Positions 11,485 to 58,711 of a stretch of 58,733 nucleotides of DNA are shown piece by piece. The notes beneath the pieces were generated by a model that was given only the letters and a program-made list of their open reading frames with translations, was not told where the DNA came from and made no database searches. Source of the DNA: a virus (taxonomy: Duplodnaviria; Caudoviricetes); IMG/VR virus record IMGVR_UViG_3300046792_000073, positions 1-58,733 of that record. One strand, given 5' to 3'. The translations under genes were made by a program, and so were the position numbers. The first letter of the stretch is position 1. Each line of letters begins with the position of its first letter.

Positions 11485-12315
11485 ATGGCCGTCGATGTCG
11501 GCACCGTCTACACCGCCACCCTGGCGATCACGGACGCCACCACGGGCCAGCCCGTATCACCGGTCACCGCCACGCTGACAGTCACCCGCCCGGACCAGAC
11601 CGTCGCCACGCCGACGGTTCCGCTGCCGCCAGCGCAAACCGGGCTGCTCGCCGTCCCGTACACGCTCGACCAGGAGGGGCTGACCAAGTTCGCGTGGGCC
11701 GGCACCCTCCCCGGCGGTGCCGCGTTCCCGCCCAAGATCGACTATGTCAACGCGCGGGCCTACGCCTCGGTGCTGTCGCTGGCCGACGCGCAGGACATCC
11801 TCGGCGTCACCGACCCTAAGCAGGTCGAGCGGATCCGCACCCTGGCGAGTGTGGCGACCCGGTACGCCGAGGGGATCGTCGGCGTCCTGGTCCCCCGGGC
11901 GTTCACCGCGGCGTGGGTGCCGGGGGAGTTCCGGCCGGTCCTGGCGGTGCCCAAGGGGCCGATCCTCACCACAAGCTCGGTCACGGCCGTCCGGTCGGTG
12001 TACGGCAACGGGCCAAGCTGGACCACAACTGACCTGGTGGTCAACACCCGGCCGGGGACGATCCGGCTCAAGTCGCTGATCGATTTCTGGTACGGGCCGT
12101 GGACGGTGGACTACACCGCCGGCGTGCAGATCGTCCACGAGGACATCGAGGAAGCGGTCCGCGAGATCCTGCGCGACCTGTACATCCCGTTCCGGGGCCT
12201 GTCGGTGGATATCGCCGAGCAGGCGCAAGAGGGGCTGAATATCAGCCCGTTCTACCGCGCCCCCGCGAGGGCGCAGATGCTGCTCGACCAACACGCCCTG
12301 CCCGGGTTCGGGTGA
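11485..12315 (+). CDS. Head-to-tail adaptor with N-terminal Ig-like extension
   Basis: LSLADAQDILG...ATRYAEGIVG, VDYTAG, DIEEAV...LY pattern of gp6/gp15-like connectors. Confidence 0.75.
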   Translation: MAVDVGTVYTATLAITDATTGQPVSPVTATLTVTRPDQTVATPTVPLPPAQTGLLAVPYTLDQEGLTKFAWAGTLPGGAAFPPKIDYVNARAYASVLSLADAQDILGVTDPKQVERIRTLASVATRYAEGIVGVLVPRAFTAAWVPGEFRPVLAVPKGPILTTSSVTAVRSVYGNGPSWTTTDLVVNTRPGTIRLKSLIDFWYGPWTVDYTAGVQIVHEDIEEAVREILRDLYIPFRGLSVDIAEQAQEGLNISPFYRAPARAQMLLDQHALPGFG

Positions 12316-12331
12316 GAGAGGACAACCGGCC

Positions 12332-31923: not shown

Positions 31924-31944
31924 TGTCGCGGTTCCTCTCTCGGG

Positions 31945-32145: not shown

Positions 32146-32423
32146 AGCTCGCCCTCGCCGGCGATCTCGCCGCCGTCGAGCAGCCGCCACGCCAGGCCGG
32201 GCATCGCCGGGTCCCGGTAGATCTCAACCTGCCGGTATGTCAGGCCCTCCCCTTCGGCGAGCGGGACGGCGGGGACGATCGACCCGCCGTGGCCGGCGTC
32301 GAGGGATGCGGCGGTCAGCCGGTCGTGGGCGCCTTGGCCGCAGAACAGGATCAGCCGGCCCGTGGCGTCTTCGGCTTTGCGCCGGGCTTTAACCAGGGCT
32401 GCCAGGTCGGCGAGGGCGGTCAC
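32142..32423 (-). CDS. Hypothetical protein
   Basis: Coupled at both ends. Confidence 0.6.
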   Translation of the reverse strand: MTALADLAALVKARRKAEDATGRLILFCGQGAHDRLTAASLDAGHGGSIVPAVPLAEGEGLTYRQVEIYRDPAMPGLAWRLLDGGEIAGEGEL

Positions 32424-33109
32424 AGTTCCACCCACCGGACGCGGGGGACATCGGGGGCCGGCAACGGTGCGGGGAGGCGCCGCACGGCGGTCTGGACGCT
32501 GTCGGCGGGATCGTGACAGTAGCAGTACATGTGCTCGCGCAGGTAATGCTCGCCGGCCGGATCCAGATGCGGCCGGACCTGGGCACGCCAGGCCCGGTCC
32601 TCGGGAAAAGCGCCAGTGTCGAACCGGCCGAGGCGGGCGAGTTCGGTGCGCAGCGGCTGAATGTGGGTCAGGTCGCAGGTGATGCGCCCGCCGGGCAGTT
32701 GGGACCAGCCGTCGTAACGCAAGGACAGGTCCGCCTCGCCGGTGACCGTCCACCCGGGGCCGGGGCCGGTGAGCCACATTGGGAAGCTGACGATCTGCGG
32801 GGCGTGCAAGGTCAGGGCGGCGGCGATCTCGGTCACGAACGTGTGCGGGACGGTGTCGTCGTCATCGACGAAGCTGGCCCATTCGCCGGCGGCGCTGTCA
32901 AGCAGCCGTTGACGGTAGGCGCCGATCGGGTGCTCGCCGTTGTTCCGCAGTGCGACGACCTCGACCGCGGCGCCTGCGAGTTGCCCGTGGATGCTGCGCC
33001 AGTCATCCCATTCGGCGGCCTGCGCGGCCAGGCCCCGGGCGAGGGCGGTGAACTTGGCCTGCCGGGCGTCGAGGGTCGCGATCAGGATCGACCATATCGG
33101 CGGGGTCAT
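32420..33109 (-). CDS. Glycosyltransferase family 2
   Basis: WSILIAT, IGAYRQ, FVDDDD, ED..W. Confidence 0.88.
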   Translation of the reverse strand: MTPPIWSILIATLDARQAKFTALARGLAAQAAEWDDWRSIHGQLAGAAVEVVALRNNGEHPIGAYRQRLLDSAAGEWASFVDDDDTVPHTFVTEIAAALTLHAPQIVSFPMWLTGPGPGWTVTGEADLSLRYDGWSQLPGGRITCDLTHIQPLRTELARLGRFDTGAFPEDRAWRAQVRPHLDPAGEHYLREHMYCYCHDPADSVQTAVRRLPAPLPAPDVPRVRWVEL

Positions 33110-33318
33110 GATTCTGGCCTGACCGGATCGGGCCAGATGCGGAACGCGGACACGTCACGCATGTCGCGGCCGAGGAAACAGGCGACGACGTTGCGTATCC
33201 GCTCGGGCCGCAGCGCGGGCAGCGGGTCGCCGTGCGCGAACACGCCTTGCACGAGGACCCGGCTGCTGCCGTCGTCGAGCAACTCGACGTCGAGGACGAC
33301 GCTGACGATCTCGGTCAT
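33106..33318 (-). CDS. Hypothetical protein
   Basis: Coupled at both ends. Confidence 0.6.
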   Translation of the reverse strand: MTEIVSVVLDVELLDDGSSRVLVQGVFAHGDPLPALRPERIRNVVACFLGRDMRDVSAFRIWPDPVRPES

Positions 33319-33890
33319 AGGTCGATCACGCCCATACCGTAGAACCCGGGCCGTGACCGCAGGTTCCGCCAGGACAGCTTGAACCGGGCACAAAAGTCGT
33401 CGAGGGCTTGCGTGACCGGGCCGCCGGGCTCGGGGAGGGACACGTCGCCGGTGTCCCATTGGGTGTCGTGGCACATGATCACGCCGCCGTCGCGCATCCT
33501 CGGCAGGTAGGCGGTCAGTTCGGCGAGGGTCTGGGCGTAGGTGTGGGACGTGTCGATGAACAGCAGGTCGAGCAGTGGCGGCAGGAACGCCTGAGCTTGC
33601 GCCGACACCGAGTCGCACTGGGCGAACCGCCAGCCCGGGTCCTGATGCCAGATCTGGGGCACGTCCGGGGCGTTGACGTCCACCGACCAGACCCGGCCCT
33701 TGGCCCAGTGGGCGCCCAGAAGCAGGGCGGCGGTCGAGTTCCCGGCCCTGACGCCGAGTTCGGCGATGATCGGGTGTTTCGTCGCGGCGAGCATCAGGGC
33801 AGGCATGTGGTCCTGGATGTCGGACCATGCGGCGAGCTTGTCCCGGTAGGTGTTCTCTCGCCAGACCAGGGAGAACGGCTCGCCGGTCAC
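33315..33890 (-). CDS. Class I SAM methyltransferase (Methyltransf_24-like)
   Basis: ELGVRAGNST, VWSVD, LFIDTSHTY, GGVIMCHD. Confidence 0.9.
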   Translation of the reverse strand: MTGEPFSLVWRENTYRDKLAAWSDIQDHMPALMLAATKHPIIAELGVRAGNSTAALLLGAHWAKGRVWSVDVNAPDVPQIWHQDPGWRFAQCDSVSAQAQAFLPPLLDLLFIDTSHTYAQTLAELTAYLPRMRDGGVIMCHDTQWDTGDVSLPEPGGPVTQALDDFCARFKLSWRNLRSRPGFYGMGVIDL

Positions 33891-34630
33891 CGGGCACCGG
33901 CCAGTGCGCGGATCCGGGCGGCGGCGGCGTCGAGGGCGTCGCCGCGCCACGCCTGATAGGCGACGTGGTCGAGGCCGGTGGACCAGGTCGCCTGCGCGTC
34001 CTCATAGGTCTGATCCCAGAGCCAGCCGGCGCGGCCACCGGACCCGGCCGGGTGGTGGTGGCGGACGATCACGTCGGGCATGTACCGGATCTGGCCGGTG
34101 CGCTCGCCGAGGTCACGCCAGGCGTTGTCGATGTAGTAGTGGGCCAGGGCCGGCGGGCACATGTAGCCGAGCGCGGCGGGGATCTCGGCGGACATCACCG
34201 GCGCCGTGGGGAGCGCCTCACCTTGCAACGTGTCGTTGCCGTAGGCGATGCCGATAGCGCCGGGCAGGGAGCAGATCCCGGCGATCAGCTTGGTGTCCCA
34301 GCCGTGGGTTAGCGGTTCGTGGTCGTCGCCGAGGGAGGCGACGAACTGGGCGCAGCCGTCGAGGTTGACGGCAAACCTGTTGGTCCAGGCGGCGAGTGTC
34401 ATCCGGGGGGCGACCTCGATCACCGTGTCGCGGATGATCGGCTGCAGGTCGTCGTCGTGCGGCGGGTAGAGCAGGCCGAGGTACTCGTCGAGGGCGGGGT
34501 CGTCGTCGTCGAGGCCGACAGCGAGCATGACCCGGGCCGTGCTGTTGCGGGCGAGGGCGGCGATCAGCCGGCGCAGCCCGGCGGGCCGTCCCCGGGTCGG
34601 GGTGATGACCGCCAGGTCCCAGTCAGTCAT
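33887..34630 (-). CDS. Glycosyltransferase family 2
   Basis: VITPTRGRP, LDDDDP, LGDDH, HYYIDN, VRHHHP. Confidence 0.88.
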   Translation of the reverse strand: MTDWDLAVITPTRGRPAGLRRLIAALARNSTARVMLAVGLDDDDPALDEYLGLLYPPHDDDLQPIIRDTVIEVAPRMTLAAWTNRFAVNLDGCAQFVASLGDDHEPLTHGWDTKLIAGICSLPGAIGIAYGNDTLQGEALPTAPVMSAEIPAALGYMCPPALAHYYIDNAWRDLGERTGQIRYMPDVIVRHHHPAGSGGRAGWLWDQTYEDAQATWSTGLDHVAYQAWRGDALDAAAARIRALAGAR

Positions 34631-35622: not shown

Positions 35623-36245
35623 CGGCCCCCGGTCGTGGCGATGTCGGCGAGGATCTTCGCCCGGATCTGCGCGACCTGGGCACCGGTCAGGTCGCGCAGT
35701 CCCTCGGTCACGGCGGTTGCGATCAGGGCGTCGATGACGGGGACGGCCATCCGGCCCCGGGCGGCAGCCGTCGGGGAGGGATCGCGTAGCTGCCGCTGCA
35801 CTTCGGCGACGATCAACTGGGCGAGAGTCAGGTCCTGCCGGCTGGCGTCGCCGGTGAGCCGGGAGCGGGGCATGGCGAGCGCCTCGGCGACGAGGCGGGC
35901 AGCTTCGGCGGCGAGCCGGTCGAGCAGGATGTCCTCGACCTGCTGGCGGATGTCGTCGAGGTCGGGCATGGCCCGGTGGACGATCTGCGAGGCGACCAGG
36001 TGACCGAGGGTCAGGCCCTCGCGGTGTTCGTCGTCGCCGGGCCAGATCACCGACCCGAGGGCGATCTCCATGGTGGCGGTGACCTGGCCGAGCCCGGCCC
36101 GCACCGGCAGGACGGGGTCCTCGCCGATGAGGGCGAGCAGGGCGTCAGCGTGATCGATGCCCGGGTCGCCCAGGTGGGCGCTCCCGGCGTCGTCGCGCCA
36201 GGACTGGGCGAGGTCGCGCAACTGGCCGAGCAGGTTGTCAGGCAT
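35619..36245 (-). CDS. Hypothetical protein
   Basis: Coupled helical ORF. Confidence 0.7.
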   Translation of the reverse strand: MPDNLLGQLRDLAQSWRDDAGSAHLGDPGIDHADALLALIGEDPVLPVRAGLGQVTATMEIALGSVIWPGDDEHREGLTLGHLVASQIVHRAMPDLDDIRQQVEDILLDRLAAEAARLVAEALAMPRSRLTGDASRQDLTLAQLIVAEVQRQLRDPSPTAAARGRMAVPVIDALIATAVTEGLRDLTGAQVAQIRAKILADIATTGGR

Positions 36246-36633
36246 GGGGATGGATTCCTTCCGGGGGGACGGTCAGATGCGGGCACGGTTCAAGACCGCC
36301 GTGGTCGTCGAGGACGAACCACCCGGTACGGGCCGGGAACCGGCCGATCGCGGGCTGCCAGTACAGCACCGGCTCGACCAGGGTGTCGGTGCGTTTGCGG
36401 TGCCGGGACACGATGTAGCCGAGGTCGCGGGCCAGGCGGGCGTGCCGGTGGGCGAGGCCGTGGCAGCCGGGGGGGACGTTGCCGGTGCCGCAGAGCAGCA
36501 GCCGGTTCGACAGCCGGTTGTCGGCCCGGTTGCCGAGGATACGGTGATGCACGGCGAACGGGGGGACCGGGGTTCCGCAGCCGACACAGCGCCGGTCGCG
36601 GGTCGCAAGCTGGGTATCGATCACGGCAGCCAC
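36238..36633 (-). CDS. HNH endonuclease
   Basis: RD..CVGC, HHR, SN.LLLCG...GCH..AH. Confidence 0.85.
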   Translation of the reverse strand: MAAVIDTQLATRDRRCVGCGTPVPPFAVHHRILGNRADNRLSNRLLLCGTGNVPPGCHGLAHRHARLARDLGYIVSRHRKRTDTLVEPVLYWQPAIGRFPARTGWFVLDDHGGLEPCPHLTVPPEGIHPHA

Positions 36634-39539: not shown

Positions 39540-40564
39540 CGTTCCCACCTGTCCCGGGGGGTGAGCTTGTCGTCGTGCCGGTCGTGGGCGCGGACCTTGG
39601 TGTCGCCGATCGACCGGGAGCACACGTCCACCGGCCGGCCGGTGGACGGGTCGATGATGTGCGCCCTCGCCGCCGGCCCCATCCGCTGCCGCAGTTCGTT
39701 GGATATGAGCCGGCGCCGGCGCTTGACCGCTGATTCGGCGGCGACGCCCGCCCAGTACCGCTCGGCCAGGCTGACCGGGATGCGAACCGACTCGTCGGCC
39801 AGATCCGGGTGCAGTTTCCGTAGGGTGACCGTGGTCGCGGGCAGGTCATCGACGGGGGGCTCGTCATGGTCGGCGAGCCGCTGCCGGAACCGCTGCGCCT
39901 CCCCGATCATGACGTCGAGGTCGCGGATCACCCCCGGGTTGTCGGCGGTGATCGTGTAGACCTCGATCTGCCAGGTCATCATGAACAGGACCACGACCTT
40001 GATCGACGCCGCGCCGGCGACGGTCATGTTCCATATCGCCTGGCAGCGGACCGCTGTCGGCATCGCGCCCGGGACGTTGCCGTCGCCGCCGGTGTCGGAC
40101 CAGCCATCCTTGGTCGCCCACGTTTTGTACTCGCCGGGCTCGGCGGTATCGACGACCCAGCCGCGCCCGTGGGCTTGCCGGTCCAGCGCTGAGGCGGCGT
40201 CGGTGTCGAGTATCCACCGGTCGAGGGTCGCCATCATCCACGGGTGGCCGCGCCGGGCGTACAGTCCGGCGGGGCGCGGGTCGAGCCACGGGTGGGCGTC
40301 GGTGAGCAGGTCGTCGATCTCCGGTTCAAGCAGCCGGCCCCGGCGCAGCACGGGCTTGTCTTCGGTCTCGATCCCGTCGAGCTTGGCGTGGTACAGGGCG
40401 AACGGCCCCATATGCGAGGACAGGCCGAGCAGGGCGGCGACGTCGGTGCCGGTGATCCCGCTGGTACGGGCGGCCAGCCACGCGGCGCGGTCCCGGTTGA
40501 TCTCGTGCTGGGGGATCAGCAGTTCGGGGCCGCTGGGAGACCGGACGGCCGTCTGGGCGGTCAT
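39536..40564 (-). CDS. recE: YqaJ/RecE-like exonuclease
   Basis: WLAARTSGITGTD, G..LEP, ATLD, EYKT, Q..W.M. Confidence 0.9.
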   Translation of the reverse strand: MTAQTAVRSPSGPELLIPQHEINRDRAAWLAARTSGITGTDVAALLGLSSHMGPFALYHAKLDGIETEDKPVLRRGRLLEPEIDDLLTDAHPWLDPRPAGLYARRGHPWMMATLDRWILDTDAASALDRQAHGRGWVVDTAEPGEYKTWATKDGWSDTGGDGNVPGAMPTAVRCQAIWNMTVAGAASIKVVVLFMMTWQIEVYTITADNPGVIRDLDVMIGEAQRFRQRLADHDEPPVDDLPATTVTLRKLHPDLADESVRIPVSLAERYWAGVAAESAVKRRRRLISNELRQRMGPAARAHIIDPSTGRPVDVCSRSIGDTKVRAHDRHDDKLTPRDRWER

Positions 40565-40857
40565 GGGCTGATCTCGCCGAGATCGATGCCGGCGAACGGA
40601 TCGGCGTCGGGGACGGCCGGCTCGTGCCCGGTGACGATCTCCGGGGGGAGCTTCGGTTCCCACGACCGGACCTGGGTGATCTCCCCACCCGCGCGGGCGG
40701 CGAGGTCGAACGCGGCCTTGATCGCGTCGAGTTGCGTATGCGGGCCGTGGTAGCGGAACGTCAGGTCGATCTCGACGATCGTGCTGGTGTGCGGTTCGCC
40801 GTCGCCGTCGCCGAGGGGCTGCCAGGTCCGGCCGTACTCGTCGAGCATCACGGTCAC
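40561..40857 (-). CDS. Hypothetical protein
   Basis: GTGA-coupled ORF. Confidence 0.6.
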   Translation of the reverse strand: MTVMLDEYGRTWQPLGDGDGEPHTSTIVEIDLTFRYHGPHTQLDAIKAAFDLAARAGGEITQVRSWEPKLPPEIVTGHEPAVPDADPFAGIDLGEISP

Positions 40858-41156
40858 CCCCATCCGCCGGGGATGACCTGCCACGGTTCGGCGAGCGCGG
40901 CGTCGCGCCCTGGCCGGGGCATCGGCTGCCCGCAGTCGGGCATCAGGACGTCGTGGCTGACGGCGAGCCACTCGACGACGAACACGTCCGGGGGGAGTTT
41001 CCCGCCGGGTCCGCCGGCGAGCCACCGGGCGAACCGGGCGCGGGCCGGGGCGTCCTCGGCGAGCCAGTGCGCGACGACGCCAAGGTTCGTGATCGCCTCG
41101 TCGGCGCCGGCCACGTCGAGCAGTTCCTCGGGTGTCGGCTCGGCTGGTGTGGTCAC
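40854..41156 (-). CDS. Hypothetical protein
   Basis: Coupled ORF. Confidence 0.6.
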   Translation of the reverse strand: MTTPAEPTPEELLDVAGADEAITNLGVVAHWLAEDAPARARFARWLAGGPGGKLPPDVFVVEWLAVSHDVLMPDCGQPMPRPGRDAALAEPWQVIPGGWG

Positions 41157-41566
41157 CGGGCACCGCCCAGGACGGTCCAGAGCCGGTCGAGGGCATCGGC
41201 CAGGGTCGTGTCGCTGGCCCGGCTGCGCTCGGCGATCGTGACCGCGAGCCGCACGTCAGCGACGAACTGGCTGACGGCCCGGTGGTCGGTGACGTCGAGG
41301 TTCACCCGCATAGCAGTCAGTGCCGATGACCCGCGCGGCCGGCCGGGTTTGGGATCGAACGGCGGCTCGCCGCGCTCGACCTGCTCGGCTTCGGTATAGG
41401 TCTCGGCCGGGCACTGGGCGAGCGCGGCGTGAACGGCGGCGAGCGCGACCATCGCCTGCTCGTGGGCGCAGTTCGGCGGGCAGTCTTTGCACTCGCGGAA
41501 CCGGGCGGCGAGCAGTAGCTGCGCTTCCCGGTAGTTCTCCCCGGGGGTCATGATGACCGTGGTCAT
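41153..41566 (-). CDS. Hypothetical protein
   Basis: TPGENYREAQ.LL...ALAAVHAALA motif. Confidence 0.65.
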   Translation of the reverse strand: MTTVIMTPGENYREAQLLLAARFRECKDCPPNCAHEQAMVALAAVHAALAQCPAETYTEAEQVERGEPPFDPKPGRPRGSSALTAMRVNLDVTDHRAVSQFVADVRLAVTIAERSRASDTTLADALDRLWTVLGGAR

Positions 41567-41784
41567 GGTTGTACCGCCCTCGACACGACCGACGGCCGGT
41601 TCACCCCGACGAGCGAGCACGTGGACCGTTGCGAGTCGGTCCACACGGCGGCGCCCTCAAGGCCGGCCTGCTGGTTGGCGAGCCGCCGCGCCTCACCGGC
41701 CTGCCGGGCGACGACGACCATCTCGCAGATCTCGCCGGTCCGCGCCGAGCCGGCGGGCCAGCGCTTCAAGTGGTAGATGTTCAC
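41563..41784 (-). CDS. Hypothetical protein, first gene of the leftward operon
   Basis: RBS gggagg; VVVA....AR.LA. Confidence 0.7.
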   Translation of the reverse strand: MNIYHLKRWPAGSARTGEICEMVVVARQAGEARRLANQQAGLEGAAVWTDSQRSTCSLVGVNRPSVVSRAVQP

Positions 41785-41821
41785 GGTCCTCCCTCGGTCG
41801 TGCTGTCCTCTCTCACCCGTG

Positions 41822-41850
41822 ACGATATAAGCCGTGTCTGACAAAATCAA
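41822..41850 (-). promoter_or_regulatory. Leftward sigma70-type promoter
   Basis: TTGATT (41850-41845) N17 TATCGT (41827-41822) in an AT-rich patch. Confidence 0.6.
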
Positions 41851-41889
41851 CCGGGCACTTTCCCCGCCCTGACAGGCGCGTGTACCATC

Positions 41890-42020
41890 GGCAGCACGGG
41901 ATCGCGATCATCCTCCCTGCGCTGAGCGGTCGGCGCTGGCGGTTAGCGGTTCCTCTCTCAACGGGCCGCGCCAGGCCCGACCGGAGGTTCGCCCCGGAAC
42001 GGCCAGGCGCGGCCCACACG
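41890..42020 (+). ncRNA. Candidate sRNA carrying the anti-RBS tract GCGGUUCCUCUCUCAA
   Basis: Downstream of TACCAT (41883-41888); 5' stem, tract at 41946-41961, long UUCG-capped hairpin at 41963-42015. Confidence 0.5.
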
Positions 42021-42259
42021 CATTCACCAGGGCATCTGTTGGCGCGGGCGCCTCATGGGTCTACTGTCGGATCTCACAACGCCGGTTACCGCTTGGACGG
42101 TTGACCGCAACCGGCCCGCCGGTTTACCGGACGTTGATCTGTCAGCGACCGCACACGACCCGGGAGGCGAACAATGCGCGAGCATTCCCCGGAACCACAC
42201 CAGACCGCGACCCGTCAACGACCCTTTGACAGCCGGACCGGCCCGGCCGGCAGACCCGA

Positions 42260-42793
42260 ATGACGCCCGGGGGGGCGACCGCTGCCAAGCCAGGAACGCT
42301 CGTGGCGCCGCAAGGCTGGCCGCAGACCCGGGCGCAGGCCGCCGAGATCATCGTGGCCCTGCTCGGCGCCCTCGACGCCGAACGCGCCCACACCGACCGC
42401 ATGTGGCACGACGGCCGCCGCCACGGCGCGGCATCAGCCGAGGGCCGGTGCCCGACCCACCAGGCCGACGTCGCCGACGCCTACGCCGCCGGCCAGCGGG
42501 CCACCGCGTCAGACCTGGCCGGCGGGGCGTCCGCGTTCGCCGCCGGGTGGAACGCCTGCCTGGACCGGCTCGCCGACGGGCTCGGCCACGACATCCCCGT
42601 CCCGCACTGGCAAGACCGCGAGACAGCCGTGTGGACCCGGCACCACCCGGCGTGCGGCTACCCGCACCGCGGCTGCCCGGACGCGCACGGGTGCCGGCCC
42701 GGCCCGCGCTCGCAGTTCGGCAAACGGGCGCCGTGGGACCGTGACCCGGCCGCCCTCGTCGCGCAAGCTCGCGCATCCTGGGGCCTGGCGTGA
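42260..42793 (+). CDS. Hypothetical protein
   Basis: GTGA-coupled to the helicase; start uncertain. Confidence 0.6.
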   Translation: MTPGGATAAKPGTLVAPQGWPQTRAQAAEIIVALLGALDAERAHTDRMWHDGRRHGAASAEGRCPTHQADVADAYAAGQRATASDLAGGASAFAAGWNACLDRLADGLGHDIPVPHWQDRETAVWTRHHPACGYPHRGCPDAHGCRPGPRSQFGKRAPWDRDPAALVAQARASWGLA

Positions 42794-43920
42794 ACGGCGA
42801 CGGCAACGACTGGGCGCCCCCCGCCGACGAGGCCGACGCCGGCGGCCGGCTCGCCGAACTACGCGGCCGGCTGCTCAACTCGATCAAGCTCGACTCAATC
42901 CGCCCGCTGGTCCCGCTGATCGGCGGCTGGCTGTTCCTCGACTCGCTCACCTGGATCTCCGGTAAACCGGGCAACGGCAAGAGCTTCGTCGTCCTCGACA
43001 TGGCCGGATGCGTATCCGAGGGCATCGCCTGGTGCGGTTACCCGACCAAGCAGGGCAACGTCCTGTACGTCATCAGCGAGGGCCTGTCCGGTATCCGGCA
43101 GCGGGTCCGCGCCTGGGAACAGGACCACGGCCGGCCAATGTCGAATGTGACCTGGCTGCCCGGCCCGGTCTCCCTCGTCGGCGACTGGGCGTCGATCGTC
43201 GCGATCGCCAAGTCGATCGACGCGGTCCTGATCGTGTTCGACACACAGGCGATGGTGACCGTCGGGCTCGACGAGGTCAGCAGCAAAGACATGGGCATGA
43301 TCGTCGCCGCCGCCGAGCACATCCGGGCCGGCACCGGCGCGTGCGTGGCACTGGTCCACCACGAGGCCATCGGCGGCGACCGGCCGCGCGGTCACTCGTC
43401 AATGGACGGCGCCGCCGCGACCCTGATCCGCGTCGTCAAAGACGGCGCGGTCGTCTGGGTCGCCAACACCAAGCAGAAAGACGGCCCCAAGCACCCGACC
43501 CTGTCGCTGCAAATCACCGCCATCGGCGACTCGCTGGTCCTGGTCCCCGTCGATGCGACCATGGCGATGGCGATGACCGACAGCGAGGTTGCCGTGTACG
43601 CGTGCCTTCGTGACCTCGCTGCGCTTAAAGGCGGGGCGTCGCACGCGGAACTGAAAGAGGCCACCGGTTCCCGGGGGGTGCCTATCTCAACGTTCGGGTG
43701 GGCGCTCAAGAGGATCGTCGCCCGTGGTCTAGCCCGCAACGAGGGCAAGGGACGATCGTCGTTTTACGTTCTGGTCGATCCGGCGCAGGGCCGGCTCGAC
43801 AGCGCTGACCAGGACGGATGGCAGCCGCAGGCCGACAGGCCGGCGGATGATGCCCAGTGGCAGCCGTCCGGTCAAGTCCAACCGAGGTCCAACGCTAGTA
43901 CAACGCGAGGTTCAACATGA
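42790..43920 (+). CDS. RecA-family (AAA_25, RSF1010 RepA-like) helicase with C-terminal wHTH
   Basis: Walker A GKPGNGKS, VLYVISEG, LIVFDT, LVHH, RGHSS, KQKD. Confidence 0.9.
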   Translation: MNGDGNDWAPPADEADAGGRLAELRGRLLNSIKLDSIRPLVPLIGGWLFLDSLTWISGKPGNGKSFVVLDMAGCVSEGIAWCGYPTKQGNVLYVISEGLSGIRQRVRAWEQDHGRPMSNVTWLPGPVSLVGDWASIVAIAKSIDAVLIVFDTQAMVTVGLDEVSSKDMGMIVAAAEHIRAGTGACVALVHHEAIGGDRPRGHSSMDGAAATLIRVVKDGAVVWVANTKQKDGPKHPTLSLQITAIGDSLVLVPVDATMAMAMTDSEVAVYACLRDLAALKGGASHAELKEATGSRGVPISTFGWALKRIVARGLARNEGKGRSSFYVLVDPAQGRLDSADQDGWQPQADRPADDAQWQPSGQVQPRSNASTTRGST

Positions 43921-43994
43921 CGGACCAGGTTATCAACACACCTGTAGTAGCTACTACGGGTGTATCTCTCTCCCCCCTAACGGGGGGAGAGATA
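43876..43994. promoter_or_regulatory. Putative replication origin (iterons plus two inverted repeats)
   Basis: GTNCAAC at 43876, 43887, 43898 and 43910; palindrome 43938-43963; inverted repeat 43963-43994. Confidence 0.6.
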
Positions 43995-44243
43995 CCCGCG
44001 CCCGCCCACGCGGACAGGGGACGCGCGGGCGCGCGGAACGCCGGCGCACGCGGATACCACGGGAACAGCTACGGGTCAAGGCACGGTTACGGCGGGGCGA
44101 ACGGCCAGTCGCACAATCACGAGCGGATCCTGGGCGCCCTCGACCGGCACCGCGCCGAGCACGGGTGGGCGCCCGGCCTGGTATGGAATCCCTACGCCGG
44201 CCGGTACGGGCCGCCGCAAGCCGGCGCCTGGTGGTCCCGGTGA
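43917..44243 (+). CDS. Hypothetical protein (5' part overlaps the putative origin)
   Basis: ATGA/TGATG coupling, but atypical codons at the 5' end. Confidence 0.4.
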   Translation: MTDQVINTPVVATTGVSLSPLTGGEIPAPAHADRGRAGARNAGARGYHGNSYGSRHGYGGANGQSHNHERILGALDRHRAEHGWAPGLVWNPYAGRYGPPQAGAWWSR

Positions 44244-45472: not shown

Positions 45473-45490
45473 CCGAGAGGAACCCAGCAC

Positions 45491-47343: not shown

Positions 47344-47387
47344 TCTCTTATCGGGTGAAAGGCACCCGGTAAGAGAGAGGGACCGCA

Positions 47388-48692: not shown

Positions 48693-48706
48693 GCTCGGGA
48701 CGCCAC

Positions 48707-48757
48707 GAGAGGCGCCGGCCCGGGGGAGAGATCCCCCGGGCCGGCGTCTCTTTGCTT
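48707..48757 (+). terminator. Intrinsic terminator
   Basis: GGCGCCGGCCCGGGGG / CCCCCGGGCCGGCGTC followed by TCTTTGCTT. Confidence 0.8.
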
Positions 48758-48763
48758 ACCGGG

Positions 48764-48804
48764 TAGACAGGGCGATCACCCGCCCGCTATTCTTAACGTG
48801 TAAG
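48764..48804 (+). promoter_or_regulatory. Repeat promoter 1
   Basis: TAGACA-N18-TATTCTTAACGTGTAAG. Confidence 0.8.
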
Positions 48805-49140: not shown

Positions 49141-49178
49141 TGAACCATCCACCCAACCACGAGAGAGGAACGACCGCA

Positions 49179-50135
49179 ATGCGACCTAAAGGACCGATGG
49201 ACCCGGGCTGGCGCCCCGCCGACCCGGTCGGGCAGATGCTGATGCTCGACATCCTTGAGCGCCTCGCCCAGCACCGCGCCGAGGACACCCTGCCGCGGTC
49301 ACCGCGTGGCCTGTTCTACGACCTGCGCCCCGACGGCATGGGCCACGGCCTGCACTACGTCAAGCAGCCGAGGATGATCACCGTCGGCCGGGGCACCCGC
49401 CGCGCCGACCCGGCCGAGATCGGCCCGATCCAGGTGCAGGAAATGCTCGTCAAGCTGCGCCGCGCCGGCCTGGTCCGCGAGGACTGGATCGAGGACACCC
49501 GCGCCCCGACCCCCGACATGCCGTCCTACAACGACGTGACCGCCGAGGACGAGGCCGCCTGGCTGGTCAACGAGATCATGTCGCCCCGGATCACCTACAG
49601 CCCGCAGCGCGGGCAGGACATGTTCCTTGAAATGGTCGTCGAGGCCGCCGGCCTGATCGGCCGCACCGCCCGCATCTGCCGCCCGTTCGGCGTGCCGGTG
49701 TACTCAGGTGGCGGGTTCGACGGGCTCAAGGGCAAGCGGGCGTTCGCCGAACGCGCCGCCGACCGGGACGTCCCGACGGTCGTGCTGCGGATCAGCGACC
49801 TCGACGAGCACGGCCTGCGGATCGCCGAGTCGATGGCCGAGGACTGTGTCGCCTGGGCGGTCAATGAGTACGGCGCCGACTACGACCAGTTGACCTTTGA
49901 ACGGATCGCCCTGACCGTCGCCCAAGCGGAGGCCGCCGGGGTGATCGACTCGGCGGGCAAGGCCGAGGCCGACGCCCTGCCGGTGCCGGTGATGGACGCG
50001 ATCATCACCGAGGCGATCGAGGAATACCAGGACGCGCAGACCCGCGAGGACAACGCCCGTGAGGCCGCCGAGGAATCCGCCCGCGTGACGGGCCTGGTCC
50101 TCGCCGGGCTGCGCGAGAGAGGAACCGAGTCATGA
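49179..50135 (+). CDS. Spo11/TopoVI-A-like wHTH-Toprim protein
   Basis: PRGLFYDL (RxxxY), IEDTR, EMVVE, GGGF, SDLDEHG (DxD), EADAL. Confidence 0.7.
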   Translation: MRPKGPMDPGWRPADPVGQMLMLDILERLAQHRAEDTLPRSPRGLFYDLRPDGMGHGLHYVKQPRMITVGRGTRRADPAEIGPIQVQEMLVKLRRAGLVREDWIEDTRAPTPDMPSYNDVTAEDEAAWLVNEIMSPRITYSPQRGQDMFLEMVVEAAGLIGRTARICRPFGVPVYSGGGFDGLKGKRAFAERAADRDVPTVVLRISDLDEHGLRIAESMAEDCVAWAVNEYGADYDQLTFERIALTVAQAEAAGVIDSAGKAEADALPVPVMDAIITEAIEEYQDAQTREDNAREAAEESARVTGLVLAGLRERGTES

Positions 50136-51418: not shown

Positions 51419-51457
51419 AACAATAGGCTGACCAGCCACAGGAGAGAGGAACAGCCG

Positions 51458-52044: not shown

Positions 52045-52551
52045 GTGGCCCGCCACCGCCGCAAGCCGGCCAGCTACCGCGAGGTCATCGCCCCGGGCGC
52101 CCTGCGCATCCCCGACGAGGTCGAGGTCACCCTCGACGGGGGACCGCGTATCGGCACCGCCCGCCTGGCCGCCGACGATCGCGGCGTGACCGCGTCGATC
52201 AGTCTCGACGGCGACGCTGGCCTGGCCGCCGCTGACGCGATCCTCACCGGGAACGTCGCCGGCCTGTCGTTCCGGGTTGAGCCGTCCCTGCCCGTCGAGG
52301 CGGTTGTGACGGCGCCCCAGCCGGGCGCCCTGGATCCGGTGCCCTGGCATATCGTGTCCGGGCACCGGCACCGGCACGCCGAGCGCACCGCCGACGGCAG
52401 CGGCCTGACCGGGTGGCGGGAGCATGACCACCTGGGCGGCGGTCAGCCGCACCGGCACGACCCGCAGACGGGGGCGCAGATCCCCGTCGGCTGCGACCCG
52501 GACCGGTGCCGGCACCCGTTCGGCTCGCACGCCGAGACCTGCCGGTCATAA
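52045..52551 (+). CDS. Hypothetical protein (His-rich C-terminus)
   Basis: HRHRH, HDH, HRH repeats. Confidence 0.6.
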   Translation: MARHRRKPASYREVIAPGALRIPDEVEVTLDGGPRIGTARLAADDRGVTASISLDGDAGLAAADAILTGNVAGLSFRVEPSLPVEAVVTAPQPGALDPVPWHIVSGHRHRHAERTADGSGLTGWREHDHLGGGQPHRHDPQTGAQIPVGCDPDRCRHPFGSHAETCRS

Positions 52552-52558
52552 TGGCGCC

Positions 52559-52825
52559 ATGAGCACTTCCCCCGAACCGATGCCCGGCCCCGCCGGCCCG
52601 AGGTACGTCCCGGGCCTGCCGACCGCCTCGACCGACATCACCGTCCCCAAGGGGACCCGGCTGACCCTCGCCCACCTGCGCGCCCTGCTCGCCCAGGCCG
52701 ACTCGATCCACCTGTCCCCCGGCGCCGTGGTGACCCCTGCGACGTCGATCGGCGGGAAGCTGACCGGGCTCAAGGTCGAGGGCGACATCCGGCCGGCTGC
52801 CAACGACCCGTTGACAGGCCAGTGA
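52559..52825 (+). CDS. Hypothetical protein
   Basis: ATG 52559, just after CATAAT (possible leaderless mRNA). Confidence 0.6.
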   Translation: MSTSPEPMPGPAGPRYVPGLPTASTDITVPKGTRLTLAHLRALLAQADSIHLSPGAVVTPATSIGGKLTGLKVEGDIRPAANDPLTGQ

Positions 52826-54874: not shown

Positions 54875-54895
54875 CCGAGAGAGAGGAACACGCAA

Positions 54896-55036: not shown

Positions 55037-55101
55037 GACCCGAGAGAGGAACCGCCCGGCACTTCCCCGCCGGGCGAACCCCGAGAGAGAGGAACCCTGC
55101 C

Positions 55102-56006: not shown

Positions 56007-56035
56007 GAAATACTGGCCCGCGTGGGCGGATCGCC

Positions 56036-56076
56036 TTGGCAGGCGGCCCGCCCACCACCTATTCTTAACATGTAAG
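56036..56076 (+). promoter_or_regulatory. Repeat promoter 2
   Basis: TTGGCA-N18-TATTCTTAACATGTAAG. Confidence 0.85.
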
Positions 56077-56098
56077 GACTTGAGGGAGAGGAACCCAG

Positions 56099-56305
56099 AT
56101 GACCCAGACCGCCGCCCAGCAGCAGCCGGCCGAGACCATCGACGACGTCGTCGCCCAGATCGAGGCCGGCCGGCGCGGGTACACCGGCATCGTCACCGGC
56201 GAGCCGTTCGCCGACGACCAGGGCACCCGCTGGCACCAAGTATTCGAATACACCAACGGCCGCTGCACCGACGCCTACGTCAGCCGCCACGGCCAGCAGA
56301 TCTGA
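56099..56305 (+). CDS. Hypothetical early protein
   Basis: Promoter plus RBS. Confidence 0.75.
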   Translation: MTQTAAQQQPAETIDDVVAQIEAGRRGYTGIVTGEPFADDQGTRWHQVFEYTNGRCTDAYVSRHGQQI

Positions 56306-56321
56306 GAGAGGACCGACCGCC

Positions 56322-56738: not shown

Positions 56739-56766
56739 CCAGACCCGGCGGATCGGCCCGGATGCC

Positions 56767-56807
56767 TTGGCAGGCGTCCGGGCCGCCCTGTATTCTTAAC
56801 ACGTAAG
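56767..56807 (+). promoter_or_regulatory. Repeat promoter 3
   Basis: TTGGCA-N18-TATTCTTAACACGTAAG. Confidence 0.85.
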
Positions 56808-56826
56808 CGAGAGAGAGGAACCCGAA

Positions 56827-57093: not shown

Positions 57094-57150
57094 CCACCAG
57101 CCGGCGCCGGCCATCGACCGGCACCGGCCAGCTTGAGAGAGGAACGACCG

Positions 57151-57737: not shown

Positions 57738-57808
57738 GGCCAGCAGCCCGGCCGGGCCGGCTGTCAACGGATCGTTGGCAGCCGGCCCGATTAATTACCG
57801 GGAAGGGG

Positions 57809-57849
57809 TAGGCAAGGACGGACCCCGCCCTGTATTCTTAACACGTAAG
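57809..57849 (+). promoter_or_regulatory. Repeat promoter 4
   Basis: TAGGCA-N18-TATTCTTAACACGTAAG. Confidence 0.85.
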
Positions 57850-57873
57850 CAGTTGAGAGAGAAGGAACCGGAA

Positions 57874-58119
57874 ATGCTCGACACGCTGATGGCCCGGGGC
57901 TACTTCCCCGCCGACGACGCCCCCGCCGGCGCCAACTGGTTTGAACTGACCGCCGGCCCGCGCGGCGTGGTCCGCGTCGTCGTCGAGGACGGCACCGCCG
58001 AGATCTACGTCAACGATGCCCGCAGCGTGAACTACTCGCAGGCCCGCCTGACCGGCGCCTCGCCGGCCATGTTCGACGCCGTCCTGGCCGCCGCCGAGTC
58101 CGACGCCAGCCAGATCTGA
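57874..58119 (+). CDS. Hypothetical early protein
   Basis: Promoter plus RBS gagagagaaggaacc. Confidence 0.75.
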   Translation: MLDTLMARGYFPADDAPAGANWFELTAGPRGVVRVVVEDGTAEIYVNDARSVNYSQARLTGASPAMFDAVLAAAESDASQI

Positions 58120-58136
58120 GAGAGGAACCGACCGCC

Positions 58137-58691
58137 ATGTGCATCCGCTGCGGCACCGGCTCAATCGCCTGGTGCACCCACCCCACCCACCACGGCGAGG
58201 ACAACCCGGCCCGGACGGTCCACGGGATCGCCACGACCCACACGTTCGACCCGGCCCCCGACTGCCTCGGGCCGAACTGCTGGCACGACAACATGACCAG
58301 CTACACGACCGACGCGTCCCCCGAGCAGATCGACCTGTCGGTCCGGTGGCGGGTCACCCTCGACGCGCACTCGGCCGCCCTGCGCGCCCTGCTCGACCCG
58401 GACCTGCCCCCCGGGACGATGGCGATGATCCCGCTCGTCCAGCCGGGCAAGCAGCACGGCTGGTGGGAGACCGGGCAGCCCGTCGAGACCGTCCCCGGCG
58501 TGATCATCCTGGCGACCGAGGGCGGCCACGACGACTCGGCCAAGACGGTCCCCGGGAAGGTCCTGGACTACTCCGCAGCCCGCACCCTGGCCGACAAGAT
58601 CGCCGAGACCTACCTCGCCGGCCGTGACGGCACGTTCGGTCACGCGGTCGTCGAGGCAAACGGCTCGACGTTCGTCCACGAAGGGATCTGA
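58137..58691 (+). CDS. Hypothetical early protein
   Basis: RBS TGAGAGAGGAACCG; N-terminal Cys/His cluster. Confidence 0.75.
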   Translation: MCIRCGTGSIAWCTHPTHHGEDNPARTVHGIATTHTFDPAPDCLGPNCWHDNMTSYTTDASPEQIDLSVRWRVTLDAHSAALRALLDPDLPPGTMAMIPLVQPGKQHGWWETGQPVETVPGVIILATEGGHDDSAKTVPGKVLDYSAARTLADKIAETYLAGRDGTFGHAVVEANGSTFVHEGI

Positions 58692-58711
58692 TCCCGGTAA
58701 GAAAAGTGGCC

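Follow-up and report, generated by a model that had tools for sequence, protein, structure and literature searches.

The window analysed here, 58,733 bp long, is the whole of virus record IMGVR_UViG_3300046792_000073 (IMG/VR), from an uncultured phage; the record is linear, with a GC content of 71% and a completeness estimate of 85%. At positions 41883–42015 it holds a non-coding element that includes a reversed copy of a motif found at the ribosome-binding site (RBS) of many phage genes. An earlier reading, made from the sequence alone (here called the sequence-only reading), had proposed for this place a candidate small RNA antisense to that motif, and the sequence features that it described all lie where it had put them. 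The element is real and conserved.

In its capsid and helicase proteins the phage is ~27–33% identical to Mycobacterium, Rhodococcus and Nocardia phages, and near-identical DNA is present in 24 metagenome runs from soil and rhizosphere. Because of this protein likeness and the origin of these runs, the phage is classed by its sequence as an uncultured, high-GC actinophage. Searches of GenBank phages with two segments of the record (megablast, blastn) gave no DNA match. The structural genes occupy the left 28 kb, on the plus strand. A leftward operon begins at the GTG at 41784 with the gene for a 73-residue protein, followed by RecE-like and RecT-like genes, and a rightward arm extends from 42.2 kb to the end, with genes for a RepA-like AAA_25 helicase and RusA and many small genes without known function. 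No integrase or repressor family was recognised in the 30 phage proteins scanned, most proteins being without any match, and a role of the element in lysogenic immunity is thus unsupported. The record contains no tRNA or tmRNA genes.

The element sits in a gap of ~470 bp (41788–42260, 473 bp) between the two divergent early operons. From 41788 to 42173 the third-position GC bias is absent, unlike in the flanking coding DNA on either side, and the small open reading frames (ORFs) in the gap were rejected on both strands, since they show no third-position GC signal and no frame or start conserved across the two genomes compared below. The gap is therefore regarded as non-coding. Its features, from left to right, are as follows.

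41822–41850, minus strand: P_left, candidate promoter with -35 TTGATT (41850–41845), a 17-nt spacer and -10 TATCGT (41827–41822), which would drive the operon from GTG 41784.
41853–41869, no strand assigned: small hairpin GGGC-ACTTTCCCC-GCCC, whose loop overlaps a -35-like TTTCCC (41859–41864).
41883–41888, plus strand: -10-like box TACCAT, 69 nt ahead of the CCTCTCTC core; the predicted start of the candidate RNA is at ~41894–41897.
41895–41945, plus strand: 5' domain of the candidate RNA, with a second CU-rich box, AUCCUCCC (41910–41917).
41906–41917, plus strand: GATCATCCTCCC, in the 5' domain.
41946–41961, plus strand: tract GCGGTTCCTCTCTCAA, the exact complement of TTGAGAGAGGAACCGC, i.e. 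of the start-associated motif.
41963–42015, plus strand: interrupted GC hairpin of 53 nt, right after the tract, with no U-run on either side.
42039–42067, plus strand: P_right, candidate promoter with -35 TTGGCG (42039–42044), a 17-nt spacer and -10 TACTGT (42062–42067).

TACCAT is the putative promoter -10 of the candidate RNA. It is one of just three TAnnnT hexamers in the 473-bp gap, the other two being the -10 boxes of P_left and P_right; the genome-wide density is 1.4 per kb for both strands together. The P_left box is the sole TAnnnT of the gap on the minus strand. P_right begins 23 nt past the hairpin, and its -35 resembles the TTGGCA of four repeated promoters described below. The likeness of GATCATCCTCCC to the 3' end of 16S rRNA, which the sequence-only reading had pointed out, is a putative one.

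The motif to which the tract is complementary, GAGAGAGGAACC, has 13 copies with ≤1 mismatch where 0.20 would be expected, and none of 100 shuffles reaches 13. An ATG follows ~4–8 nt downstream in 11 of the 13 copies, the exceptions being the reversed copy in the gap and a plus-strand copy at 55042. Eleven of the 13 lie on the plus strand, at 47.3–58.1 kb, and the two on the minus strand go with a leftward gene and with the gap. Judged by this placement, the motif is an RBS-position element. Its part AGAGAGGA may pair, with one G-U pair, with the last eight bases of actinobacterial 16S rRNA. The tract proved to be the exact complement of the motif, as had been claimed, and its complement has 15 other exact matches of ≥10 nt (13 on the plus and two on the minus strand), against a mean of 0.45 in 20 mononucleotide shuffles; among them are the five sites of 13–14 nt that the sequence-only reading had named (58117–58130, 55042–55055, 50115–50127, 57133–57145 and, on the minus strand, 31928–31941). 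The reversed copy in the gap, at 41948–41959, runs opposite to the adjoining rightward genes. It has no start codon at RBS distance on the minus strand, also as claimed, and no translated leftward ORF that uses it as its RBS was seen in either the phage or its relative G001 (see below). The copies, including partial and diverged forms, are these.

12313–12322, plus strand: partial motif TGAGAGAGGA before the ATG of a structural-arm gene; the orthologous site in G001 has a copy too.
31930–31941, minus strand: copy with a 14-nt tract complement, 7 nt ahead of the ATG of a 50-residue leftward gene.
45475–45484, plus strand: partial motif GAGAGGAACC before the ATG of a 287-residue gene.
47373–47384, plus strand: copy with one mismatch, before the ATG of a 434-residue gene (phrog_1221).
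49161–49172, plus strand: copy with one mismatch, ahead of the ATG of a gene whose PHROG match is topoisomerase-like.
50115–50126, plus strand: exact copy, ATG 5 nt on; the tract complement extends over 13 nt (50115–50127).
51442–51453, plus strand: copy with one mismatch, ATG 4 nt on.
54879–54890, plus strand: copy with one mismatch, ATG 5 nt on.
55042–55053, plus strand: exact copy without a start, followed by the hairpin GCCCGGC-ACTTCCCC-GCCGGGC (55054–55076) and then by the next copy; 14-nt tract complement (55042–55055).
55085–55096, plus strand: exact copy, ATG 5 nt on.
56084–56095, plus strand: copy with one mismatch, just past a repeated promoter, ATG 3 nt on.
56304–56315, plus strand: copy with two mismatches, ATG 6 nt on.
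56811–56822, plus strand: exact copy, just past a repeated promoter, ATG 4 nt on.
57135–57146, plus strand: copy with one mismatch, ATG 4 nt on; 13-nt tract complement (57133–57145).
57857–57868, plus strand: diverged copy GAGAGAGAAGGAACC, just past a repeated promoter and before an ATG.
58118–58129, plus strand: exact copy with a 14-nt tract complement (58117–58130), ATG 7 nt on.

A promoter block is repeated four times in the same part of the genome (at 48788, 56060, 56791 and 57833). It consists of a -35 box (TTGGCA, TAGGCA or TAGACA), 18 nt, the -10 box TATTCT and then TAACAYGTAAG. In two of the four blocks the -35 appears, by eye only, to lie in the loop of an inverted repeat.

48760–48804, 56030–56076, 56761–56807 and 57803–57849, plus strand: the repeated promoter blocks, each directly upstream of a motif copy.

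Relatives were sought with a helicase profile, which gave 138 loci (59 metagenome, 79 viral), and synteny was assessed by tblastn with 11 phage proteins. Only one locus, L071, was syntenic; it is part of a 72-kb viral record, G001, and a scan with a RecE profile again found G001 alone. The other helicase-profile loci carried no more than one or two stray motif copies each, and single-protein scans of viral contigs with the 177-residue protein of the rightward arm and with the helicase found no relatives. Closer relatives exist at the protein level in other collections (helicase 89% identical on a 7.5-kb contig, others 56–60%). A scan for promoter plus motif returned 16 viral stretches, the G001 contig being the only related one; the same scan of genomes gave 105 stretches, single matches in scattered taxa that were judged from the listing to be chance. 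The promoter-block pattern gave two low-GC chance matches. A scan for the tract plus the hairpin base returned at least 117 stretches. Filtering for GC >62% and at least two GAGAGAGG copies flagged eight loci among the matches listed, of which three are pieces of G001 and the other five were, on inspection, chance.

G001 is 50% identical to the phage in RecT, 59% in RecE, 37% in the 177-residue protein (p177), 44% in the helicase and, in two proteins further downstream, 50% (p293) and 56% (p439). Since a global MAFFT alignment misaligned the element, the two gaps were compared by anchor-wise alignment. They are collinear over 400 bp, with spacings that agree within ~10 nt, and non-coding identity outside a few conserved blocks is 36–49% in most segments. 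The order of P_left, TAnCAT, ~70 nt, tract, hairpin and P_right is kept. Each of the three TAnnnT hexamers has a positional partner in G001: P_left corresponds to TTGCAT-17-TACCGT, TACCAT to TAGCAT, 72 nt ahead of the G001 copy of the CCTCTCTC core, and P_right to TGGGCA-17-TAAACT, which begins 16 nt past the G001 hairpin. Neither genome has a minus-strand TAnnnT to the right of the element. G001 has CCGG-TACTTCCCCCT-CCGG in the place of the small hairpin at 41853–41869, and GACCUCCCC 27 nt ahead of its core; the 5' domain is otherwise poorly conserved (42% identity). The main hairpin is ~50 nt long and stands three or four bases past the tract in both genomes. Its base, GGGCCGC/GCGGCCC, is identical, and its upper part differs yet remains paired: 41% of the aligned positions differ, 10 bp are common, and two upper pairs are inverted between the genomes (CG versus GC). 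The indel-rich hairpin allowed no reliable structural alignment of the two elements.

The tract of G001 is matched to the motif of G001. This motif, tGGAGAGAGGGAACC, has 14 copies at ≤2 mismatches, all before an ATG, and ACACGTAAG precedes seven of them. The G001 tract, GTTCCCCCCTCTCTCCA, holds CCCTCTCTCCA, which is the exact 11-nt complement of tGGAGAGAGGG, so that both features peculiar to the G001 motif (an extra 5' G and a longer G-run) are mirrored in the tract, in this one relative. The sequence-only reading had named in advance an outcome that would speak against it, namely a relative that keeps the motif and lacks the tract, and G001 is not such a relative. This outcome is favourable and not decisive, since any model in which tract and motif have the same partner predicts it. 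Calculated duplex energies, as means of the best 12, were −26.1 and −26.7 kcal/mol for the cognate combinations and −21.7 and −22.6 kcal/mol for the swapped ones, the cognate duplexes being 4–5 kcal/mol stronger. Among 97 crude gene leaders, 21 give duplexes with the tract of ≤ −18 kcal/mol, against a mean of 3.6 for 200 shuffled tracts, and the complementarity of the tract to translation-initiation regions thus exceeds chance.

The plus strand of the element has a predicted fold of two domains (z = −3.19). The 5' stem put forward by the sequence-only reading is not the predicted optimum; the minimum-energy fold instead pairs GGGAUCGC with GCGGUUCC, the 5' half of the tract. The description of the tract as mostly unpaired consequently holds for its 3' 9 nt, UCUCUCAAC, with an unpaired probability >0.9, and fails for the GCGGUUCC half, which is buried (unpaired probability ~0). 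In G001 the unpaired probabilities of the tract are intermediate, at 0.1–0.6. The predicted 5' stem needs two G-U pairs and therefore forms only on the plus strand. The hairpin at 41963–42015 folds on either strand, and its 60-nt window (−44.1 kcal/mol) is within the 30 most stable of the genome. At gathering threshold Rfam has no match in the whole record, and a permissive scan of 41780–42270 gave one meaningless match (11.5 bits against a threshold of 37.8, E 5.9).

Several features favour a rightward RNA. The sole -10-like box able to drive the element points rightward and is conserved, and the hairpin lies at the position of a terminator, just before the next promoter. All genes to the right of the element are on the plus strand, so nothing would transcribe it leftward. 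A strong hairpin followed by a promoter recurs at 48701–48804, and by analogy a terminator at 41963–42015 would imply rightward transcription with its start within the gap. In that second place, at 48701–48760, is also the genome's most canonical terminator, with a 20-bp GC stem followed by UCUCUUUGCUU.

The best reading of the element, which we hold tentatively and at somewhat less than an even chance, is that it encodes an antisense RNA that would pair with the RBS motif of the non-structural genes. In this reading, 41883–42015 would be a separate small non-coding transcription unit between the leftward and rightward early promoters, producing a rightward structured RNA of ~120–130 nt with a 5' domain bearing a CCUCCC box, a CU-rich tract and a long GC hairpin. 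The hairpin would end or stabilise the RNA just before the rightward promoter. The free UCUCUCAAC end could nucleate pairing with the motif 4–8 nt before the ATG of ~12 non-structural genes, and the pairing could extend to 10–16 bp. Such a duplex would cover the Shine-Dalgarno (SD) region, block binding of the 30S subunit and lower translation, and might also expose the mRNA to double-strand RNases. We infer the transcription of the RNA, its 5' and 3' ends, its pairing in vivo and the resulting repression from the sequence. The RNA may end at the hairpin, as a small RNA, or may continue as a leader. The timing of an early-to-late switch, which the sequence-only reading had proposed, is speculation; a unit placed between early promoters would be expected to be made early or constitutively, and this would suit a delayed-feedback brake no less than a switch.

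A number of observations weigh against an antisense RNA. The promoter is weak, as the sequence-only reading had conceded: its -35 is poor (TTTCCC; TTCCCC in G001), and a strict sigma-70 consensus scan found no promoter in 41500–42500. No U-run follows the hairpin in the phage or in G001, so that it does not qualify as an intrinsic terminator, unlike the U-tailed terminator at 48701–48760, of which kind the phage thus has at least one. Terminators without a U-tract have been described in actinobacteria, though their efficiency is disputed. About half of the tract (8 of 16 nt) is paired in the predicted fold. Fold z-scores are inconsistent as a strand signal between the two genomes (phage −3.19 on the plus and −0.87 on the minus strand, G001 −2.69 and −3.76), and the hairpin has no G-U pairs and so does not tell the strand. 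The G001 tract has three surplus C residues relative to a perfect complement. The copy at 55042, on the coding strand beside a hairpin, shows that copies without a start are not unique to the gap and can arise without being antisense genes. The comparison has two genomes as its basis, and contigs of four DNA runs over 40500–43500 showed no differences within 41800–42300; true covariation statistics are therefore impossible. The 24 listed runs that contain the sequence are all DNA, and no inference is drawn from this. Finally, the match between tract and motif is equally expected if the same factor, for example a DNA-binding protein, reads the reversed copy.

That last point leads to the view that the element acts as DNA, either as an operator for a phage regulator that reads the motif in any orientation, in the manner of the cluster A mycobacteriophage stoperators, or as part of a replication origin or single-strand initiation signal beside the RepA-like helicase gene. 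It does lie between divergent promoters and 0.8 kb from the AAA_25/RepA-like gene, other conserved palindromes occur in the gap (TGTCTGACA and GTCAAC-N7-TTGAC), fold energies favour neither strand consistently, and a motif-reading protein would keep the reversed copy matched in each genome. The remaining copies, though, stand at a fixed 4–8 nt from an ATG in strict coding-strand orientation, which argues for a role in RNA or translation and not for an operator. The reversed copy is ~100 bp from the -35 of either promoter and thus not placed to block them, no iterons surround it, and no repressor-like protein was recognised in the 30 proteins scanned. The 3-nt insertion in the G001 copy would also be less tolerable to a DNA binder than to a bulged RNA duplex. 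Taken together, we consider a DNA-level function unlikely. We give a slightly smaller chance to a cis-acting 5' leader, in which the TACCAT transcript would read through the hairpin into the rightward operon and have a role, for example, in processing, stabilisation or antitermination; HK022 put is reportedly an RNA of the last kind. The tract might then pair with motif copies on the same long mRNA or have no pairing role. The unit is co-oriented with the rightward operon and directly upstream of it, its plus-strand hairpin lacks a U-run, and the two-domain structure would suit such a leader. This account gives no reason why the tract should follow the motif; if pairing is what counts, the account becomes one with the antisense reading. 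Also, a separate conserved promoter (TTGGCG-17-TACTGT; TGGGCA-17-TAAACT in G001) follows right after the hairpin, as at 48701–48804. A leader would find a parallel in mycobacteriophage Adephagia, where the gap with the reversed motif copy is the reported start of late transcription that runs on, so that the antisense sequence may sit in a long leader (PMC11373665).

Two further explanations read the reversed copy in the sense of the minus strand. It may be a relic without present function, i.e. the RBS of a lost leftward gene with the hairpin as its old terminator. The start-less copy at 55042, which lies beside a hairpin, is flanked by a second copy and resembles what the loss of a gene or an exchange of cassettes would leave behind, would be a precedent, and three more SD-like boxes (GGGAGGAT, GAGAGAGGACAG and GAGGGAGGACC) lie downstream on the minus strand. 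A neutral remnant, however, should not follow a lineage-specific variant of the motif, nor should it survive between genomes whose proteins are 37–59% identical and whose flanking non-coding DNA has diverged almost to randomness (36–49%); position, spacing to the -10-like box and hairpin are all kept. This makes a relic very unlikely. The idea we find hardest to credit is a minus-strand decoy RNA, whose SD-like boxes without a start codon (GAGAGAGGAACC and GGGAGGAU) would soak up ribosomes or a motif-binding factor. The minus-strand copy has the same sense as the functional copies, a weak terminator-like hairpin with GGTTGATTTT lies downstream (41869–41853), and in G001 the minus strand folds better than the plus strand. 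Against these stand the lack of any minus-strand TAnnnT right of the element in both genomes, the plus-strand orientation of all genes to the right, the absence of the terminator-like tail from G001, and the phage minus strand itself, which folds no better than shuffles (z = −0.87).

The right-hand side of the gap holds one more feature.

42174–42263, plus strand: upstream ORF of 29 codons with the RBS GGGAGG, whose TGA overlaps the ATG (ATGA) of the 177-residue gene at 42260.

The same arrangement exists in G001 (L071 5395–5493; 32 codons, read by eye), and the peptide is poorly conserved. Inside the upstream ORF, both genomes keep a palindrome, GTCAAC-N7-TTGAC(AG), which may be an operator. 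A word of the form GTTGAT(T/C)(T)TGTCAG is found at 41831–41850 (over the leftward -35) and, 296 bp away on the other strand, at 42133–42148 (before the upstream ORF), and its part GTCTGACA is kept in G001; the pair may represent operator half-sites. The hairpin at 41853–41869 was flagged as terminator-like on the minus strand, and its loop shares the word ACTT(T)CCCC with its G001 counterpart and with the hairpin at 55054–55076 (ACTTCCCC).

Elsewhere in the window, the leftward operon at 32420–34402 has PHROG matches to glycosyltransferase and DNA methyltransferase families, with an HNH endonuclease beside it (36238–36633). Two tandem perfect hairpins follow the helicase gene at 43936–43995, and in the second of them the arms, GGGTATCTCTCCCCCC/GGGGGGAGAGATACCC, are similar to the motif and to its complement. 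A CATAAT-like box 6–7 nt before ATG-AGC-ACT-TCC-CCC, at ~52547–52575, is kept in G001 at ~52370–52400, where crude gene calls differ, and by its sequence looks like the start of a leaderless gene.

The closest parallel to this arrangement is the start-associated sequence (SAS) of cluster K mycobacteriophages. In the original description (Pope et al. 2011, PMC3203893), the SAS is a ~13-bp asymmetric repeat with 11–19 copies per genome, ~3–8 nt before mostly ATG starts, in the non-structural arm and in one orientation, with a single reversed copy away from gene starts in subcluster K1; the possibility that it is bound by "either RNA or protein" is raised there. Extended SAS (ESAS) of cluster K carry a promoter (PMC11373665). 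Papers from 2024 and 2025 still call the purpose of the SAS unknown or ill-defined. The motif of the present phage is likewise an asymmetric 12–13-nt repeat with an SD core, placed a few bases before mostly ATG starts in one orientation in the non-structural arm; a subset of its copies, here four, is preceded by a repeated promoter block, and a single reversed copy, here 41948–41959, is not at a gene start. The two systems differ in that the cluster K consensus, GGGATAGGAGCCC, is unrelated to GAGAGAGGAACC, and the phages share only ~30% identity in capsid and helicase proteins and no DNA match. Moreover, the reversed copy here is found where the early region begins, as linear sequence ahead of a hairpin, whereas cluster K has its copy close to the right end, within the loop of a hairpin, at the reported start of late transcription (PMC11373665). 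Since the sequences are unrelated, the motif system of this phage is analogous to the SAS and not a member of it.

We therefore looked at the reversed SAS itself. In Anaya it lies in a 385-bp gap between genes 96 and 97 (region 59799–59904; L390 34800–34905), and in Adephagia at 58682–58694 (L401 2183–2195), in the 432 bp that separate genes 92 and 93, from which late transcription reportedly sets out (PMC11373665). The Anaya region, on the strand of the SAS genes, has z = −4.84 and presents the complement of the SAS in a 10-nt apical loop with an unpaired probability of ~0.99. The region occurs in 133 records, of which nine, sampled across the identity range, were aligned. Two hairpins are kept, with the reversed SAS in the apical loop of the second on the SAS-gene strand; in 7 of 32 pairs both partners have changed, and G-U predominates in several pairs, which points to an RNA of the SAS-gene strand. 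Some cluster K annotations place a hypothetical protein over the reversed SAS. The loop sequence is kept in seven of the nine phages. The other two make the parallel imperfect: the loop of Amohnition has drifted though its SAS consensus is unchanged, so that this phage gives no support for matched change, and SirPhilip lacks the loop sequence. In addition, PMC3203893 reports no reversed SAS site for TM4 and Pixie. The cluster K parallel is thus suggestive and not universal. In the accessible literature on SAS, actinophage small RNAs and mycobacteriophage non-coding RNAs (supplements not covered), no proposal of an antisense RNA against the SAS was found.

It is conceivable, though we regard it as doubtful, that reversed SAS copies are genes or leader segments for anti-SAS RNAs in at least two unrelated actinophage lineages, the present phage with G001 and cluster K. 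If so, one RNA would switch off, or hand over, a whole private translational regulon, and the purpose of the SAS, open since 2011, would have an answer and a first concrete, testable role. For cluster K, phages and RNA-seq data are already available, and a test in Mycobacterium smegmatis is feasible now; the present phage serves as an independent second case, accompanied by a relative whose tract is matched to its own motif.

Among other known systems, the stoperators of cluster A mycobacteriophages resemble the motif in being a 13-bp asymmetric site that is repeated many times in short intergenic gaps and follows the direction of transcription. They are, however, bound as DNA by the immunity repressor, at distances from start codons that are not fixed; the motif keeps a fixed distance to the ATG, and the 30 proteins scanned included no recognisable repressor. 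PMC3203893 also mentions these stoperators as a contrast to the SAS. In its several C/U-rich single-stranded boxes (CCUCCC and CCUCUCUC) and its stable 3' hairpin, the candidate RNA would be like RoxS/RsaE and the mycobacterial 6C/B11, the C-rich anti-SD small RNAs with many targets that Gram-positive bacteria and actinobacteria possess. Those are host-encoded, conserved across genera and act through short degenerate seeds, whereas the candidate RNA would be phage-encoded, with an exact match of 12–16 nt to a motif private to the phage.

The c4 RNA of P1 and P7, the CI RNA of P4 and sar of P22 are reportedly phage antisense regulators that cover an RBS, and in P1 versus P7 matched changes in RNA and target are said to set specificity. 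Like these, the candidate would be a structured RNA of small size, encoded beside or at the start of the operon that it controls and complementary to RBS regions; no sequence or Rfam relation to c4-type RNAs was found. Theirs are one or two targets in one operon, in lysogenic immunity, whereas here the target is common to ~12 unlinked cistrons, and the scan of 30 proteins recognised no lysogeny genes. What would be new, if the antisense reading is true, is a viral RNA matched to a private RBS motif common to a set of cistrons, together with the link to the SAS. Where the known phage RNAs that cover an RBS have one or two targets each, this phage would then possess a virus-encoded, regulon-wide translational switch.

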